Shown piece by piece: positions 2,280 to 13,612 of a stretch of 64,000 nucleotides of DNA (positions are counted from its first letter, which is position 1; each line of letters opens with the position of its first letter). Position numbers and translations under genes: made by a program. This DNA comes from a virus. Taxonomy: Duplodnaviria; Caudoviricetes. Below the pieces are notes generated by a model. The model saw nothing but the letters and a program-made list of their open reading frames with translations, had not been told where the DNA came from and searched no databases. The stretch spans positions 32,001 to 96,000 of the IMG/VR virus record IMGVR_UViG_3300037067_016777. One strand, 5' to 3'.

Positions 2280-2328
2280 TGTTCAGTCAAAGGTGCTTTT
2301 GAACGGTAATGGTAAGGTTGGTGACCAA

Positions 2329-4380
2329 ATGAAAATCTCAGAGCTCCGTAGTGCGATCGATAGAGCTTCGCAGCTCTATTACACTCTTGGCACGATCTCA
2401 TCAACCTCAGATACCGAGTATGATGTGTTGATGGACGAGTTGAGGCGATTAGATCCATCAGATCCTCGACTAACTAGAATCGGTCCCCCATATTCTGCTG
2501 CTGATTTCGCTGCCAAGAAACAACACCTAATCCCAATGGGGTCTCTCGATAATACTGATGGTGGTATTAGTGGATTTGCTAGTTGGTACGACAAGACTTG
2601 TGCTCTGCTCGGTGTCGAGAGTTTCACGATCAACGCTTCCTTGAAGATGGATGGCAACAGTGTTGCGTTAAATTATGAAAAAGGTATGCTTAAGGAAGCG
2701 ATCAGCCGTGGAAACGGTACCGAAGGTTTGGATATCACAGCAAATGCCGTAAAGTGGATGGGCGTTCCGACCTGCTTGCCAGTCACATTCACTGGTACGG
2801 TCCGTGGCGAGGCGATTCTCTACAAGGCCGAATTTGACGCGATGAAGGAGAGCGACCCGACACTCACCAACCCCAGGAATGTGGGTAGCGGTATTCTCGG
2901 TCGAACTGATGGCACACAGAATGAACTGATTCGTTTTGTCGCTTTCAACATCGTCGATCCGAAGACGGGTTTCTCCTCTTTGAGCACCAAATTCAAGGTT
3001 CTTGAGAGGCTCGGTTTCAGTCCAGTACCACATATCGTCATCAGTGGTGATCATCGCCAAGCCATCATCAAATCGTTTGAAGACAATTTCGCTGAGACGG
3101 AAGCGCAACGCCCGATGTTGCCTTTCGAGATCGATGGCGTCGTGGTGATGGTCGATGACGTTCCAGCACAGAAATCGATCACGAAGGACCGAAAGGATGA
3201 GCTACGACCGAAGTATGGTCGGGCTGTGAAGTTCGTCACCGCCAAAGCACAAACGACAGTGACCGGCGTCACCATCACCATGGGCCATACCGGCTCTATC
3301 ATCCCAACGGCGATTCTTGAGCCGGTCTTCGTCGGCGGCGTCACTGTCACCAACGTCCTGCTCAACAACTGGAACGCGGATAGCGAAGCTCCATCAGCCG
3401 CTCATGTCGCAATCGGCGACACTGTTGAGATTGCCAGGCAAGGCGACGTCATCCCGAAGATTGTCCGCGTCATCGATCGTCCATCCGATCGCCAGCCGAT
3501 TGAAGAGCCGAAAGTATGCCCCGTCTGTGGCTCGCCGACAACAAGGACATTGCGAGACAAAGAAGGCGTCGTCACCTACTGCACGAACGCTGACTGCGGC
3601 GGTGCATCGGTCAGCAAGATCAAGCACTACATCGGAAACTCCGACAAGGGTGCTGGTATCATGGGCGTCGGCGATAGTGTTCTCGAAGCACTCACGAGCA
3701 ACGGACTTGTCACAACACCCGGCGACCTTTACCGGCTCAAAGCTGAGCAGTTGATTGATTTGCAGATCGGCACGAGCAAGAGCGGTACGCCAATCCGGCT
3801 CGGCAACACCAGAACAAACAACCTTCTCGCCGAAATCGAGAAGTCCAAGCAACTTCCGCTCACTAAGTTCCTTGGCGCTCTCGGCATTTCGCTGCTCGGT
3901 CGGCGTCGTGTCGAAATCGTCGCCCAGGAGCAAGGACTGACGACGCTTGAGGATTGGTTGAATGAAGAGAAACTCGCCACGATTCCCGGTGACGTGATAC
4001 GGAAGACGATTATCGATGGGCTGCAAAAGGTGCGGCCCGTCATCGACGATCTGCTTGCCGTTGGCATCGTTGTTTCGCCTGTTGTTCCTATCGAAATCCT
4101 GGAGACTACAACCGTCGCAACGGCCGATGACGGCGTGATTGGTCCCAAGCAGATCGCTGGCAGCACGTTCTGTTGGACTGGCTGCCGCGATTTTATCGAT
4201 GAGGTTGTTGCGAGGGGTGGTGTCGTGAAGAGCGGTGTGAGCAAAGGACTCCATTATTTGGTGCAGAAAGATGCTACGTCATCGTCTGGTAAGACCTTGA
4301 AGGCCGAAAGCTACGGCACGAAAATCATCAGCATCGACTGTCTGCGTGAAGTCCTTGACGGTCTTCGAGAGCTGCCATAG
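2329..4380 (+). CDS. ligA: NAD-dependent DNA ligase
   Basis: SDTEYD, KMDG adenylation motif, NPRN, EIDGVVV, GDVIPKI, C4 zinc finger, C-terminal BRCT (SGVSKGLHYLV); start assumed at ATG 2329. Confidence 0.95.
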   Translation: MKISELRSAIDRASQLYYTLGTISSTSDTEYDVLMDELRRLDPSDPRLTRIGPPYSAADFAAKKQHLIPMGSLDNTDGGISGFASWYDKTCALLGVESFTINASLKMDGNSVALNYEKGMLKEAISRGNGTEGLDITANAVKWMGVPTCLPVTFTGTVRGEAILYKAEFDAMKESDPTLTNPRNVGSGILGRTDGTQNELIRFVAFNIVDPKTGFSSLSTKFKVLERLGFSPVPHIVISGDHRQAIIKSFEDNFAETEAQRPMLPFEIDGVVVMVDDVPAQKSITKDRKDELRPKYGRAVKFVTAKAQTTVTGVTITMGHTGSIIPTAILEPVFVGGVTVTNVLLNNWNADSEAPSAAHVAIGDTVEIARQGDVIPKIVRVIDRPSDRQPIEEPKVCPVCGSPTTRTLRDKEGVVTYCTNADCGGASVSKIKHYIGNSDKGAGIMGVGDSVLEALTSNGLVTTPGDLYRLKAEQLIDLQIGTSKSGTPIRLGNTRTNNLLAEIEKSKQLPLTKFLGALGISLLGRRRVEIVAQEQGLTTLEDWLNEEKLATIPGDVIRKTIIDGLQKVRPVIDDLLAVGIVVSPVVPIEILETTTVATADDGVIGPKQIAGSTFCWTGCRDFIDEVVARGGVVKSGVSKGLHYLVQKDATSSSGKTLKAESYGTKIISIDCLREVLDGLRELP

Positions 4381-9093: not shown

Positions 9094-9348
9094 TCAGAAC
9101 CCATTCCTTTCTAGCCAGTCGACTTCAGCTTGTAGTGCGTCGGACCGTAGACGATATGGCCCTAGTTTCGGCCCGTTCACCGGCGACAAATCGGCCACCC
9201 AATTCACTTGCTCGCCACCATCGATAGGCTCGACATGGCTAGCACGTCTGATGGTGGTTTCGCCCTCATCGTAGAGAGTGACAAGGGCATCGTTGTGGAT
9301 GGCCGCAATGCTGCCGTCAGGTTTGATCGCAAGGCTAATAGCTGACAT
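9094..9348 (-). CDS. small conserved protein of the DUF1257/DUF2997 module
   Basis: IRRASHVEP...WVADLSPVNGPKLGPY.LRSDALQAEVDWL, recalled as the neighbour of DUF2997 genes. Confidence 0.7.
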   Translation of the reverse strand: MSAISLAIKPDGSIAAIHNDALVTLYDEGETTIRRASHVEPIDGGEQVNWVADLSPVNGPKLGPYRLRSDALQAEVDWLERNGF

Positions 9349-9517
9349 GATTCTGCTGCGGCCTTTCGTACATTTCCGGTGTGTCTTTGTCTGTGGAGAC
9401 GGTCCCGAGAGCCTTTTCGACGGCTTTCGTAACGTCTTTGCAGGATTGGCCCTTCACGCCGTTGACTTCGATTTTCGGCGTCCCGTCCGGAGAGACTGTG
9501 ATCGTGATTGTCTGCAT
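9335..9517 (-). CDS. DUF2997 family protein
   Basis: ITITVSPDG.PKIEVNGVKGQSC.DVTKAVEKALG...TPEMY. Confidence 0.85.
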   Translation of the reverse strand: MQTITITVSPDGTPKIEVNGVKGQSCKDVTKAVEKALGTVSTDKDTPEMYERPQQNHVSY

Positions 9518-9526
9518 GGTGTACTC

Positions 9527-9970
9527 CTACTTCATTGCGACCAAGCGGACATCGCCGGTCTTTGCGTCAGCTTTTTCGGTAACGTGCCACCCTTGGCTCT
9601 GCAACGTTCGAGCGGCGACGGCAACACCGTATCGCTGCTTAAGCTTTTGCATTCCTTGGCCGAATACCTTCGCCAAGCCACCGGGACCCCACTCGTCGGC
9701 AACGACCACGAATGATCCGTTTGGTTGTTTGACCAGGCCGATGTCGTAATTGCATTCCGGATGCGTGATGACGTGATCACACTTGCCGTAGTCTTTCGGA
9801 CTGATGCCCTGCTTGTATGCGGCATTGTCCGCACTGTAATCGTTCATCCAGCGACCATACCACCGGAAGGTTTTCTGGTCTCGGACGAGCTCAGCACCAA
9901 GAAACCTCGCGGCGACTTCCAGTGCTTTCAGGTCCCTTACTTCGAGTTGAATCGTGACGACGTGTGACAT
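9527..9970 (-). CDS. DUF1257 (Ycf35-like) protein
   Basis: MSHVVTIQLEVRDL.AL..A...YDIGL...DEW...LKQRY. Confidence 0.8.
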   Translation of the reverse strand: MSHVVTIQLEVRDLKALEVAARFLGAELVRDQKTFRWYGRWMNDYSADNAAYKQGISPKDYGKCDHVITHPECNYDIGLVKQPNGSFVVVADEWGPGGLAKVFGQGMQKLKQRYGVAVAARTLQSQGWHVTEKADAKTGDVRLVAMK

Positions 9971-10236
9971 TGTTGTCTCCTGTGTGAAATCCCCTCTATT
10001 TCATCATAGCACGAAAGAAGGTGATTATTAACTCGTTGCCTATATCAAATCAGCACGAGCATTTTGGTAGTCGAGTGATTCGGATAGGCCCGATGTCGGT
10101 TGTGTTGCCACGAATTTGGATCGGCCAGAATCGCCAGCCGATCGGAGCAGACGGATATGATTGCCCATCCCGGTAGATCCATCGTCCGAACGTTGTACGC
10201 CACCCAGTCCACAACCATTCGACTTTCCATTCCATG

Positions 10237-11199
10237 TTATTCGTCCTCCTCGTCTTCGTCATCGCCCAGATCGATCGCTCTGGCTGGCATATCACGCAAC
10301 AACTTATCCAGATTCTCCTTGACAGTTGACATACGTTCGGCGACGACAGTAGCAATTCCCTCGTCTCCCTTGATGGATTCCGGAGTCTGCCCAGAAAGAA
10401 CTTCTTTGGCTTCGTCGGCAAGCAGCGCAAGCTCCTTGTCTCCGCAGACGTTGCGGGCCGAGAATAGCTCCAAGAAATCGACGATCTTGGTGATAGTGGT
10501 CGTGGCGAATTGCTTCCGCTTTCCGTTCGGCTGCGGAGACAGCCGATCAACGAGGTGATCGACAAGTTTCTTCAATCCAACCCTCAAGGCTGCCTTGATT
10601 TGAAGGGCCATGTCCTTGATTTCGGTTGCCTGTCGGTTCCTTTCCTGATGGGCAATCGCCTTGCTTACCTTCTTGTCGCTGGAGGGCGACCAGTCGAACC
10701 AACGCCGTTCGACCCAGAACTTGGCACGGAGAGCGTTGCGACCAGCTTCGGTGCTCACATCGAAATAATTCGATGCAAGAAATTGATCTTGCAACTCGAT
10801 TTTGGCTTCCTCTACCAAGTCGGCGTATTCGGCGACGAAGTGATCAGCCCACTTATTGTAGGCTTGTTCGGCGTTGGTGATCTTGTCATTGAGGTCATCA
10901 ACGAGCGGCAGCGGGACCAGATGCGTCCCTTCGGAGAATGGAGAGCCTGGGACTTGTCGCTTGACGGCGTAGCGGCGCATGTCTCGGGCGATGAAGAGCA
11001 ACTGCTCGTAGTTATCGCTCTGTAGGATTTTCTTGCTCAATCCGAGACGCTGTTTGTTTGCAATCGTCTGGATTTTTGCAAGGTTCCCTGTCCGGATGAT
11101 GCCGGTCTTGTGAAACCGAAGCAGCAAACAGGTCGTTAATTGGAGGACGTTTGCTGTTTCTTTGGCGTCTTCGGATTGAGCGGTTTCGATGGCGGTCAT
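10237..11199 (-). CDS. DUF3150-like helical protein
   Basis: LSKKIL...PF.EGTHLVP...LVDHLVDRLS...GKRKQF...FLELFSARNV...LDKLL pattern; has its own promoter and RBS. Confidence 0.65.
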   Translation of the reverse strand: MTAIETAQSEDAKETANVLQLTTCLLLRFHKTGIIRTGNLAKIQTIANKQRLGLSKKILQSDNYEQLLFIARDMRRYAVKRQVPGSPFSEGTHLVPLPLVDDLNDKITNAEQAYNKWADHFVAEYADLVEEAKIELQDQFLASNYFDVSTEAGRNALRAKFWVERRWFDWSPSSDKKVSKAIAHQERNRQATEIKDMALQIKAALRVGLKKLVDHLVDRLSPQPNGKRKQFATTTITKIVDFLELFSARNVCGDKELALLADEAKEVLSGQTPESIKGDEGIATVVAERMSTVKENLDKLLRDMPARAIDLGDDEDEEDE

Positions 11200-11265
11200 T
11201 TCAGATCTCCTGTTATTGTTTCCCTCTGATCTATTATAGCACGACGAGAGGGAATTATTAACCGA

Positions 11266-11550
11266 TTAGCGGGAGAGTGGCTCGAACTGTAGCATATCTC
11301 GGAAGCTTTGGTGCCAGATACGCCGATTGTCGGGAGGGAAGATGACCGGACCGAACCACGGCGAAACGATAGTCCAATAGCCCAATTCTACTCCCCTCTC
11401 ATCGAAGAAATAAACGATGGAGGTAAAAGGCTCTTTGGTTTCGTTACCGGAATACCAGTTGCGGCCGGTCAAGGTTCCACAACCAACTTGGGTGGCTCCG
11501 AGAGCCTTAAATTGTTCGATGATTTCGTAACTAACCTGATTTGCGAACAT
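11266..11550 (-). CDS. hypothetical protein
   Basis: AAGGA RBS; fits between a terminator and the next promoter. Confidence 0.6.
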   Translation of the reverse strand: MFANQVSYEIIEQFKALGATQVGCGTLTGRNWYSGNETKEPFTSIVYFFDERGVELGYWTIVSPWFGPVIFPPDNRRIWHQSFRDMLQFEPLSR

Positions 11551-11572
11551 GCTGAGTCCTTAGAAAAAGACA

Positions 11573-11614
11573 CTCTTGGCGGGGGCGACTACGAGCCGAC
11601 AGCCCCGCCAAGAG
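11573..11614 (-). terminator. intrinsic terminator after the AAA ATPase gene
   Basis: CTCTTGGCGGGG / CCCCGCCAAGAG stem followed on the minus strand by TGTCTTTTT. Confidence 0.65.
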
Positions 11615-11634
11615 CGACACACAGGACGCACAGA

Positions 11635-13200
11635 TCAGACGTGCAAAGCCCGATTGGGCTCATTGTTTCCCGGCAGCTTATAGACGCCTTCACGACTCGC
11701 GGACAAATAGCGTTCGTTCGCCGACTCCCGCAGCCGCTTGATTTCTTCCCGATCGGTCATACCAACGGGAGTGATGTAGGTGGCGGCTTCGGCAATCGGA
11801 ATGTTCATCCGGAACGCCTTGTCGCAGCAATGCTTGATGTCGCGAGCAGCCCATTTGTCGTCGTCCTTGAATGGCTTATCATCAAGCCCGTACTTCTTGA
11901 GGAGCACATCCCAGATTGGGCGACGTTCGACCTTCGGCGGTAGATCGAAGAAGAAAATGTCGGTGAATCGAGACTTCATTGCCCCCGATAGGCCGTCGAT
12001 GCTGTTGCTCGTGGCCAGCCACAGCGTTTCGTTGCCGCCGATAGCTTGCACGACCTTCAACGCCGACCGAATGAGGTTCTGGCTCTGGCCGACCAAAGAG
12101 CCCTGCATCGCACCAAGATCGATCCGGATAACGACGCGATCAAACTCGGCTCCGACTGCCTTGCAGATGGCCGACTTACCGCAGCCGGGAACACCTAGCA
12201 ACATGACACCGAACACATCAAAATCTTCCATCCAGGAAAGCAGCGTGCCTTCCTGGTCCTGATTGACGCCGCTCGTATCGCCACGAGCTGCCAAGCCGGT
12301 CTTCTCGATTTCGTCCAACCAGACGATAAGCTTGGGTTGTTTACGGCCGGTCATGATGCGGCTCAGGTAGGTCTTGATTTGGTCGAGGCCACCGAGATCC
12401 GTGAACTTCTCACCGCCACGATGGATCGAGAGTCCTTTCGTCTGTTCGACTTGCTTCCGCTTTGCAATCCAGCAATGCTCAAGGTCGATGCCACTCGCTG
12501 GGACCTGCCCTTCGACGGTCTGCGGACGTAAAGCCATTGCCACGACCTGTTCGGCTCCGAAGTATGGGAGGCCCTTAACGGCTTCGACGACGCGATCGAC
12601 CGCCTCGTCGCTCGCCAACGGCCGCTTCTTCTTGATGCCGGTCCCACCACAAACCTTGCAGCTTTTCAACCCATCACAGTCACAGAGGCTGACTTGTGCA
12701 TCGAGGTCCTTGACGCACTTTGCCAATTGCTCCTCGTTGGGCATCGGCTCTTCGATGATGATGACGTCGTTCTTGAGGCTCGCCGGAAGTTGGATTGTGT
12801 CGGCAAGCAATACGAGAGTGCAGCACGCCCGTTTGAAATCGTCGCGAAGGTTCCAAACGGCCTGACGGACAGTGGGGTTGTCGAGCCAGTCCGTTGCAGC
12901 TTGCATCGCGATGATGGAACCGCTCGGGATCAGGCTCAGATCTGAAATCGCCTTCAGGAAGCCAAAGGGCGACAGGGTGTTCAAATCGTCGTTCAGTGTG
13001 GCCACCGTTTTGGTGGCCATCTTGTTGTAACCATTCACGCCGCTGGCAGAGTTCCACATCATTAGCGCGGCATTCCGTGGGATTTCGCAGCAGTCCTTGA
13101 GGAGCGTCTGTATCGTGGCGGCAGGGTCAGAACATTCGATGCCGATGAGAGGCACACCAGCCTTGCGAGCAGCCAAAAATTGTTCAGTGAATGTTAACAA
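11635..13200 (-). CDS. Ycf46-like AAA+ ATPase with permuted Walker motifs
   Basis: DLGGLDQIK, IVWLDEIEK, GVPGCGKS, IDLGAMQGSLVGQSQ, ATSN, SRFTDIFFFDLP; TTG start after ACAGGAGA. Confidence 0.9.
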   Translation of the reverse strand: MLTFTEQFLAARKAGVPLIGIECSDPAATIQTLLKDCCEIPRNAALMMWNSASGVNGYNKMATKTVATLNDDLNTLSPFGFLKAISDLSLIPSGSIIAMQAATDWLDNPTVRQAVWNLRDDFKRACCTLVLLADTIQLPASLKNDVIIIEEPMPNEEQLAKCVKDLDAQVSLCDCDGLKSCKVCGGTGIKKKRPLASDEAVDRVVEAVKGLPYFGAEQVVAMALRPQTVEGQVPASGIDLEHCWIAKRKQVEQTKGLSIHRGGEKFTDLGGLDQIKTYLSRIMTGRKQPKLIVWLDEIEKTGLAARGDTSGVNQDQEGTLLSWMEDFDVFGVMLLGVPGCGKSAICKAVGAEFDRVVIRIDLGAMQGSLVGQSQNLIRSALKVVQAIGGNETLWLATSNSIDGLSGAMKSRFTDIFFFDLPPKVERRPIWDVLLKKYGLDDKPFKDDDKWAARDIKHCCDKAFRMNIPIAEAATYITPVGMTDREEIKRLRESANERYLSASREGVYKLPGNNEPNRALHV

Positions 13201-13270
13201 GGCAATTCTCCTGTGTTTCGGGGAGGACCTCCCTCCCTCTGATCTGTCATAGCACGAAATAGTTACGTGC

Positions 13271-13612
13271 TTAACTCGTAGTCGTTGACGTTGCCAGAAA
13301 ACGAGATACTTTCCATCGGTTGCTGAGAAGAGCTTTCAGATGCGTTTTGTCCAGCGTGCTGTGTGTCATCAGGGTGGGATTGACGTTATCGGGTAGATTG
13401 TCAAGCACGTTCTGGAAGACGAAGGCAACCTCAATGGCCCCTGAATGTGGCTCTTCCCAAAGACGCACTTCACAATGCTTCATCAGCATTTCGCGATTAC
13501 TGCCCTTTTCAATCTTGAACTCTGGACCAAGCTTTCGCAAAAGTCGATCTCGCCAAGTGGTAGGATCGACGCCAACATCGCCCTCTAAGGAACAAGCTCT
13601 GTAATTTGGCAT
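13271..13612 (-). CDS. hypothetical protein
   Basis: promoter, hairpin leader and ACAGGA RBS. Confidence 0.7.
   Translation of the reverse strand: MPNYRACSLEGDVGVDPTTWRDRLLRKLGPEFKIEKGSNREMLMKHCEVRLWEEPHSGAIEVAFVFQNVLDNLPDNVNPTLMTHSTLDKTHLKALLSNRWKVSRFLATSTTTS

Follow-up and report, generated by a model that had tools for sequence, protein, structure and literature searches.

We analysed a 64,000-nucleotide stretch of viral DNA (hereafter, the window; bases 32001-96000 of the IMG/VR record IMGVR_UViG_3300037067_016777, Caudoviricetes), in which five genes form one module that travels on unrelated phages, prophages and plasmids. They encode an AAA+ ATPase, a DUF3150-like protein, a DUF1257 protein, a DUF2997 protein and a small acidic protein of 84 amino acids (aa). 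The ATPase is predicted to resemble the Cdc48/p97 unfoldases, and we see about an even chance that the five proteins constitute a self-contained mobile-element module built round such an unfoldase and acting early in infection. The carrier record is 269 kb long and 74% complete (CheckV). Its closest relatives at the module locus, two viral contigs, measure 388 kb and 364 kb, so the carrier is a very large uncultured phage.

The original prediction for this stretch had described five co-oriented genes with two unrelated open reading frames (ORFs) between them, and this arrangement was confirmed, with all five genes intact on the minus strand between 9094 and 13200. In the direction of transcription the order is ATPase, a 94-aa ORF, the DUF3150-like gene, a 61-aa ORF, DUF1257, DUF2997 and the 84-aa gene. 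The module genes are as follows.

11635..13200, minus strand: AAA+ ATPase, 521 aa, with a TTG start behind an ACAGGAG ribosome-binding site
10237..11199, minus strand: DUF3150-like protein, 320 aa, assigned by family-level matches to PF11348
9527..9970, minus strand: DUF1257 (Ycf35-family) protein, 147 aa (PF06868, E 3.6e-9; phrog_20456)
9335..9517, minus strand: DUF2997 protein, 60 aa (PF11211, E 5.7e-15; phrog_23133)
9094..9348, minus strand: acidic 84-aa RASHVEP protein, defined as a family by jackhmmer and matching no Pfam domain

The relatives of the ATPase start at the same residue as the TTG start in the window, and the 84-aa gene overlaps the end of the DUF2997 gene by 14 nt. In PHROGs, the ATPase, DUF1257 and DUF2997 each fall in families with no function assigned.

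To survey co-occurrence, we collected 80 loci from bacterial or archaeal genomes and 80 from viral contigs, each encoding a relative of the ATPase, and searched their ORFs iteratively with the window proteins. Shares were calculated over the 126 loci in which the sequence downstream of the ATPase extends for 4.5 kb or more. The DUF3150-like gene was detected in 122 of them (97%), DUF1257 in 111 (88%), DUF2997 in 86 (68%) and the 84-aa family in 39 (31%), always on the strand of the ATPase. DUF2997 was probably under-detected, because it has only 60 aa. All five genes were present in 38 loci, and the commonest order in viruses (ATPase, DUF3150-like, DUF1257, DUF2997, 84-aa) is that of the window. 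An all-against-all clustering of the 2,883 genes of these loci revealed no other family common to the viral and bacterial sets. The genes therefore co-occur elsewhere, as had been expected of one system. The view that there is no system, and that these are chance neighbours in a densely packed early region with each gene under its own promoter, would fit the separate promoters, the terminator-like hairpin after the ATPase gene and the unrelated ORFs interleaved in the window. It is almost certainly wrong, however, given that the 97%, 88% and 68% shares, all on the same strand, hold across loci from numerous phyla and kinds of element, which have no other genes in common.

Independently of this survey, the module appears in the NCBI annotation of the 199-kb Candidatus (Ca.) Manganitrophus plasmid CP114559, which lists an AAA family ATPase, DUF1257, DUF2997, DUF3150 and an 84-aa hypothetical protein; the last ends the same cassette and is 47% identical to the 84-aa protein of the window. 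When the DUF3150-like protein was searched with tblastn, three Ca. Manganitrophus plasmids were the only matches among plasmids and none was found among phages, and the DNA of the cassette had no match in 50,697 phage records. The whole module was also identified in Tunturiibacter phage Tunturi_3 (gp103, gp102, gp101, gp99 and gp96). In that record gp96 (locus L001, 9696-10655) is annotated as 'HNH endonuclease', although it matches neither HNH nor any other Pfam domain at E <= 0.01 and joins the DUF3150-like family in the iterative search; the product name is probably wrong.

The ATPase matched the Pfam AAA profile PF00004 at 54.8 bits (cut-off 21.2), with the best stretch covering profile positions 1-53 only, and a search with it recovered at least 918 relatives. 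Its AlphaFold2 (AF2) model is confident (predicted local distance difference test, pLDDT, 89; predicted template modelling score, pTM, 0.80). Foldseek aligned both of its AAA domains to the D1-D2 pairs of p97, Cdc48, Rix7 and NVL at E values of ~1e-13 to 3e-14, over ~590 columns, with template modelling (TM) scores of 0.38-0.49 and 12-15% identity. The D1-like domain is degenerate, with no P-loop in residues 1-170 and the sequence VPLIGIECSDP in the place of Walker A; no N-domain family was detected by Pfam or NCBIfam. The second domain (D2) has a Walker A motif, GVPGCGKS (336-343), a sensor-1 asparagine (N399) and an arginine finger (R411). K342, D296/E297, N399 and R411 are invariant across 34 aligned relatives. 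Model and alignment together show a D1 that is predicted to be dead and nucleotide-free, and a D2 that is catalytically complete and predicted to be active. The reading of the ATPase as an ATP-driven protein-remodelling machine, which had been proposed for it before, is supported by these analyses, because the predicted fold is Cdc48/p97-like and the Walker A lysine, the Walker B aspartate-glutamate pair, the sensor-1 asparagine and the arginine finger do not vary.

The Walker B segment of D2 is not where an AAA+ core normally has it. IVWLDEIEK (291-299) precedes Walker A by 40 residues, and the canonical position between Walker A and sensor-1 holds only 'GGNETL'. Canonical relatives of full-length homology are found in Rhizobium phage vB_RleS_L338C (hereafter, L338C; E 1e-18) and in Aeromonas phage HJ05 (E 3e-15), and the comparison reveals two reciprocal gaps. 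The 35 displaced residues (291-325) align to the Walker B region of the L338C protein with z = 7.6 against shuffled sequences, and the rearrangement was found in 34 of 34 aligned relatives. These alignments show the predicted Walker B strand and helix of D2 to have been transposed ahead of Walker A.

Two kinds of insertion were seen in this ATPase family. The first ATPase domain contains an extra Cys-rich knuckle, CxC...CxxCxGxG (residues 173-188; window 12640-12690), which resembles the zinc knuckles of DnaJ and is found in the relatives from large phages and in some others, being absent from most members of the family. Inteins typically settle in functionally critical sites of ATPases, and several relatives (P0014, P0015, P0071, P0077 and P0087) carry one inside the Walker A loop (GVPG | C...), with the cysteine of GVPGCGKS (residue 340) at the junction. 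These P-loop inteins are of two types, one with Intein_splicing and the other with Hom_end_hint and LAGLIDADG domains.

The family assignments previously made for the ATPase, DUF1257 and DUF2997 all stood above the Pfam cut-offs; DUF3150 held at the level of the family, the window protein itself scoring below its cut-off (18.9 bits against PF11348; cut-off 24.9). The family-level assignment is solid: among 31 aligned relatives, PF11348 is matched by 21 at E <= 0.01 (the best E value being 1.5e-9). The NCBI name of the plasmid homologue is 'DUF3150 domain-containing protein'. By profile search the DUF3150-like family comprises 9,969 representative clusters at 50% identity. The AF2 model of the window protein (pLDDT 80) has a mixed alpha/beta N-terminal half, a C-terminal four-helix bundle and a disordered tail. 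We considered an ESCRT-III/Vps4-like pairing for this helical protein and dropped it, as no fold match supported it.

DUF1257 scored 37.2 bits against PF06868 (cut-off 22.2), and its N-terminal Met-Ser is invariant in the alignment. DUF2997 scored 55.4 bits against PF11211 (cut-off 24.1) and covers the full profile (1-47). The 84-aa protein has at least 323 relatives, all lacking Pfam domains, and the family shares the RASHVEP motif within the pattern PDG...RASHVEP...W.ADLSPV.GP.LGP...AE..WL, and jackhmmer detected its relatives in 46 loci. Fused or longer forms of DUF1257 were sought; three proteins were found and none of the fusions was informative. In a single metagenomic protein (P0243, 356 aa) the DUF1257 domain is C-terminal and is fused to PDZ domains and to regions with weak Tricorn/S41 peptidase matches; this hints at a link to proteolysis, but too thinly to build on.

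A feature shared by the ATPase and the DUF3150-like protein is the C-terminal tail. The DUF3150-like family ends in a conserved P-x-R-x-hydrophobic-x-hydrophobic motif followed by acidic residues (ARAIDL and an acidic run in the window), and the ATPase carries the same R-x-hydrophobic-x-hydrophobic tail, so that the two window proteins have RALHV and RAIDL, respectively. The motif was detected in 24 of 34 aligned ATPases (71%), in 111 of 146 DUF3150-like proteins (76%) and in 6% of the other genes of the same loci.

Comparison with known machines places the module near the Cdc48/p97 type. Like Cdc48, p97 and VAT, and Rix7/NVL, the ATPase is predicted to have two stacked AAA-fold domains, with the P-loop, sensor-1 and arginine finger of the classical clade. 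It is also accompanied by dedicated cofactor genes, and its C-terminal tail motif is analogous to the docking tails of other AAA motors. Unlike them, it has a D1 without a P-loop and no recognised double-psi-barrel N domain, the connectivity of its D2 is rearranged, its pore loop (S-L-V-G) is non-aromatic, and its cofactors are unrelated to Ufd1/Npl4. The cassettes of L338C and HJ05 offer a further comparison: behind a homologous ATPase come, in the same order, DUF1257, DUF2997 and a protein distantly related to the 84-aa one, and the cassettes adjoin DnaB and Pol I, whereas Walker B of these ATPases is in its normal place. The second gene of both cassettes (208-212 aa) was examined as a possible relative of the DUF3150-like protein, and no relationship was detectable. 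The presence of the same trio behind a canonical ATPase in these two phages marks DUF1257, DUF2997 and the 84-aa protein as a unit able to serve either form of the motor.

We next considered when the module might be expressed. The window contains 10 copies of the motif TCGTGCTATRAT..AGAGGG, where chance would give 0.02, and all three of the separate promoter copies reported earlier, one each ahead of the ATPase gene, the DUF3150-like gene and DUF1257, were located.

13235..13275 (motif 13235-13257), minus strand: promoter copy 5' of the ATPase gene, one mismatch, aligned with four other copies
11222..11262 (motif 11222-11244), minus strand: promoter copy 5' of the DUF3150-like gene, exact motif match
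9992..10032 (motif 9992-10014), minus strand: promoter copy 5' of the DUF1257 gene, exact motif match

In all three, a 17-nt spacer separates a TTAATA-like -35 element from an extended -10 element. The copy of the DUF3150-like gene reads TTAATA-17-TATAAT with a TG (10 of 12 consensus positions) and that of DUF1257 reads TTAATA-17-TATGAT with a TG. The ATPase copy has a -35-like GTTAAG, then TGCTATGAC, which holds the conserved AGAGGG, and in the leader after it a GGGAGG/CCTCCC hairpin precedes the ACAGGAG ribosome-binding site. The stop codon (TAA) of an upstream 113-aa ORF falls within this GTTAAG (window 13271-13275); that of the 94-aa ORF lies 4 nt ahead of the next -35 and hence not inside the promoter element. 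Judged by their sequence, the copies look like phage-wide promoters of the host sigma-70 kind, and early expression of the module from them is plausible because of this resemblance to the consensus. The suggestion of a probable early region is likewise plausible, the sigma-70-like promoters themselves being confirmed and the early timing deduced from their consensus.

The neighbours of the module differ between carriers and bear on its role. Where the module was found in 'bacterial' sequences, its surroundings are prophage-like or plasmid DNA with genes for replication and recombination. Both copies in Nitrospira moscoviensis lie between ribonucleotide reductase and a primase with an SNF2-type helicase; in Bryobacteraceae an SNF2-type helicase, Sipho_Gp157 and a CAAX protease come ahead of the module; and in a Planctomycetaceae genome the genes ahead of it encode YqaJ, RecT and an SMC-like ATPase. 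RadC is nearby in the Gemmatimonadetes and plasmid copies, and the sister cassette of phage L338C stands directly ahead of DnaB and DNA polymerase I. The context slightly favours a role in replication or recombination over counter-defence.

Some of these loci also depart from the standard gene content. The complete chromosome of Nitrospira moscoviensis carries two ATPase and DUF3150-like pairs (L048 and L049), which enclose ORFs of 104 aa and 73 aa (L048, 8552-9112) that may be very divergent equivalents of DUF1257 and DUF2997; the comparison with DUF1257 gave an hhalign probability of 19%. In Bryobacteraceae a radical-SAM/Fer4_12 gene, NrdG- or QueE-like (L015, 9204-9806; L020, 9648-10571), replaces the 84-aa gene and separates DUF2997 from the DUF3150-like gene.

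The original prediction had favoured host takeover or counter-defence, in which the motor would unfold or extract a host immune effector or regulator early in infection. The module has early promoters of the host type and lies among small orphan genes in an array, as takeover regions typically do; both are what such a role would lead one to expect, as is the sporadic spread over very different phages, plasmids and prophages, which recalls accessory conflict genes. RadC-like JAB and Fic genes are also neighbours on some elements. However, no PADLOC or anti-defence signature emerged. Against PADLOC-DB 2.0, only the P-loop of the ATPase matched weakly (IetA, TRIP13) and the other nine proteins tested matched nothing, so no partner fits a PADLOC model and the sole match is the generic AAA core. 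The module instead sits steadily within the replication/recombination operons of temperate elements; its neighbours across prophages, plasmids and other phages include ribonucleotide reductase, primase, SNF2 helicase, Gp157, YqaJ-RecT, DnaB/Pol I and RadC. We regard a counter-defence role as rather unlikely on this evidence.

The weak P-loop similarity to IetA also raises the reverse possibility, a defence or exclusion system by which the mobile element would act against competing phages, with the ATPase as sensor or effector, as in IetAS. IetAS likewise has an AAA ATPase and is found on mobile elements, and the carriage of the module by prophages and plasmids, with several copies per bacterial genome, would suit such a function. 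The match, however (30.5 bits in PADLOC; 24 bits in NCBIfam, with a cut-off of 510), is limited to ~50 residues round Walker A. There is no IetS-like protease, the partners differ, and the set has no conserved effector, be it a protease, a nuclease or another kind. In large virulent-type phages the module is under early promoters and co-oriented with lytic replication genes. A defence function thus seems very improbable.

The Cdc48-like fold would also suit an unfoldase working together with a tagging operon of the Bil/Bub type, in a pathway that marks proteins with a ubiquitin-like tag and then unfolds them. No ThiF-type E1 (PF00899) or Prok-JAB (PF14464) was found in the 269-kb carrier record, which is 74% complete, and no E1 or E2 family recurred among the 160 loci; the planctomycete and Gemmatimonadetes loci examined have YqaJ-RecT or RadC upstream instead. 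We give this pathway very little credence.

The account we prefer is that of an unfoldase with its cofactors, and this molecular picture of the module is fairly probable. The ATPase would form a hexameric ring in which the upper ring is inactive, and the second ring would use ATP to pull, unfold or extract a protein through the S-L-V-G pore loop. The DUF3150-like protein would act as a cofactor or platform that docks by its conserved tail. DUF1257, DUF2997 and the RASHVEP protein would form an accessory sub-complex, as suggested by the trio accompanying a canonical, non-rearranged ATPase in other phages. In the carrier phage the module genes would be transcribed early from strong host-type promoters. 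The specific biological role is a more tentative matter: the module would possibly clear or remodel a protein complex so that the DNA of the element can replicate and become established, a guess made because replication and recombination genes adjoin the module elsewhere.

Several observations weigh against this account. The link to replication is guilt by association, and shared early timing could explain it equally well; in the window itself, the neighbours of the module are small orphan ORFs. The order of the genes is variable across loci and unrelated genes are often interleaved. The candidate pore loop lacks the usual aromatic residue, and the shared tail falls to 28% when all ATPase ORFs of the loci are counted, fragments included. 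The model of the DUF3150-like protein had no specific match in the PDB, either with Foldseek or in an all-against-representatives structure search, where only generic helical bundles were returned (the best, at Z 9.5, scoring lower than is to be expected of helical models). Alignment profiles of the DUF3150-like protein and DUF1257 gave only chance-level matches to PDB sequences, and no solved relative of DUF1257, DUF2997 or the 84-aa family was found. Searches of the Atlas with the module proteins retrieved only their own viral DUF clusters, which include no structural model.

Three further features lie between the module genes.

11562..11618, minus strand: intrinsic-terminator-like hairpin with a T-run, 3' of the ATPase gene (RNA fold)
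11266..11550, minus strand: interleaved 94-aa ORF, outside the module, putatively coding, no relatives
10050..10235, minus strand: interleaved Trp-rich 61-aa ORF, outside the module, 77% identical to an ORF in phage locus L086

The hairpin has a folding energy of -33.7 kcal/mol (z = -5.67), and none of 200 shuffled sequences was equally stable. For the 94-aa ORF, no match was found in Pfam, PHROG or NCBIfam, and no relative among 164 loci. The 61-aa ORF starts 1 nt past the stop codon of the DUF3150-like gene, with a GAGGAGGA ribosome-binding site 8 nt upstream. Its identity is to the C-terminal 60 aa of the ORF in L086, a locus of the 364-kb phage, and it is for this reason that we prefer its frame over an overlapping 61-codon frame (10045-10230), which is not conserved in the related phage; base composition by codon position, unlike conservation, would have favoured the latter. 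Because the L086 homologue (3700-4077, minus strand) sits in a different place and orientation from that of the window, the Trp-rich ORF looks like a small mobile gene. Further away, ~5 kb from the module, the plus strand of the window encodes an NAD-dependent DNA ligase with adenylation, OB and zinc-finger domains (2293-4380).

Outside mobile elements, the nearest counterpart of the module is the cyanobacterial and plastid set of Ycf46, Ycf35 and DUF2997. In cyanobacteria DUF2997 and ycf35 are adjacent, in the cluster 'duf2997-ycf35-fed7' (PMC4284462), and Ycf46 is reported to be a KaiC-interacting, stress-induced ATPase (PMC13683863). The two sets share the DUF1257 and DUF2997 Pfam families and an AAA ATPase of the SpoVK/Ycf46/Vps4 group. 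Unlike the cyanobacterial and plastid set, the phage set is carried on mobile elements, has two additional fixed partners (the DUF3150-like and RASHVEP proteins) and a transposed Walker B in its ATPase, and includes no ferredoxin gene. The conserved neighbourhood of Ycf46, Ycf35 and DUF2997 that the original prediction had cited is sound as to the adjacency of DUF2997 and ycf35 (PMC4284462), and loose as to 'Ycf46', since the ATPase is rearranged and its likeness to Ycf46 is by label only, 'SpoVK/Ycf46/Vps4 family' being the source label on one of its relatives.

Mentions of DUF1257, DUF2997 and DUF3150 in the full-text literature concern neither phages nor this set of genes, and where Ycf46 and Ycf35 are discussed, it is solely as orphans of plastids or cyanobacteria or as a KaiC-interacting ATPase induced by stress. 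As a type the module is familiar, a probable AAA+ unfoldase with cofactors of its own and related to Ycf46/Ycf35/DUF2997; the five-gene phage set is not described in the literature searched. A broader interpretation, which we offer as speculative, is that mobile elements widely carry a machine, not described before, for unfolding or extracting one particular protein complex while the element becomes established. Its motor would be one whose Walker B has been rewired to the front, the tails shared by motor and cofactor would serve as a docking code, and the cyanobacterial and plastid ycf46/ycf35/DUF2997 set would be the cellular version.

The module gives large families of no assigned function, the DUF3150-like proteins and the ATPases, a defined set of partners, and possibly does so for ycf35 and ycf46 too. 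With its Walker B transposed, the AAA+ core has been rewired in a way that is rare in nature; the change is conserved in the whole ATPase family examined, and it bears on how much change in connectivity this fold tolerates. Rhizobium phage L338C, Aeromonas phage HJ05 and Tunturiibacter phage Tunturi_3 provide culturable carriers for testing. If the cyanobacterial and plastid set is indeed the cellular version of the module, work on culturable phages would assign a function to ycf46, ycf35 and DUF2997.

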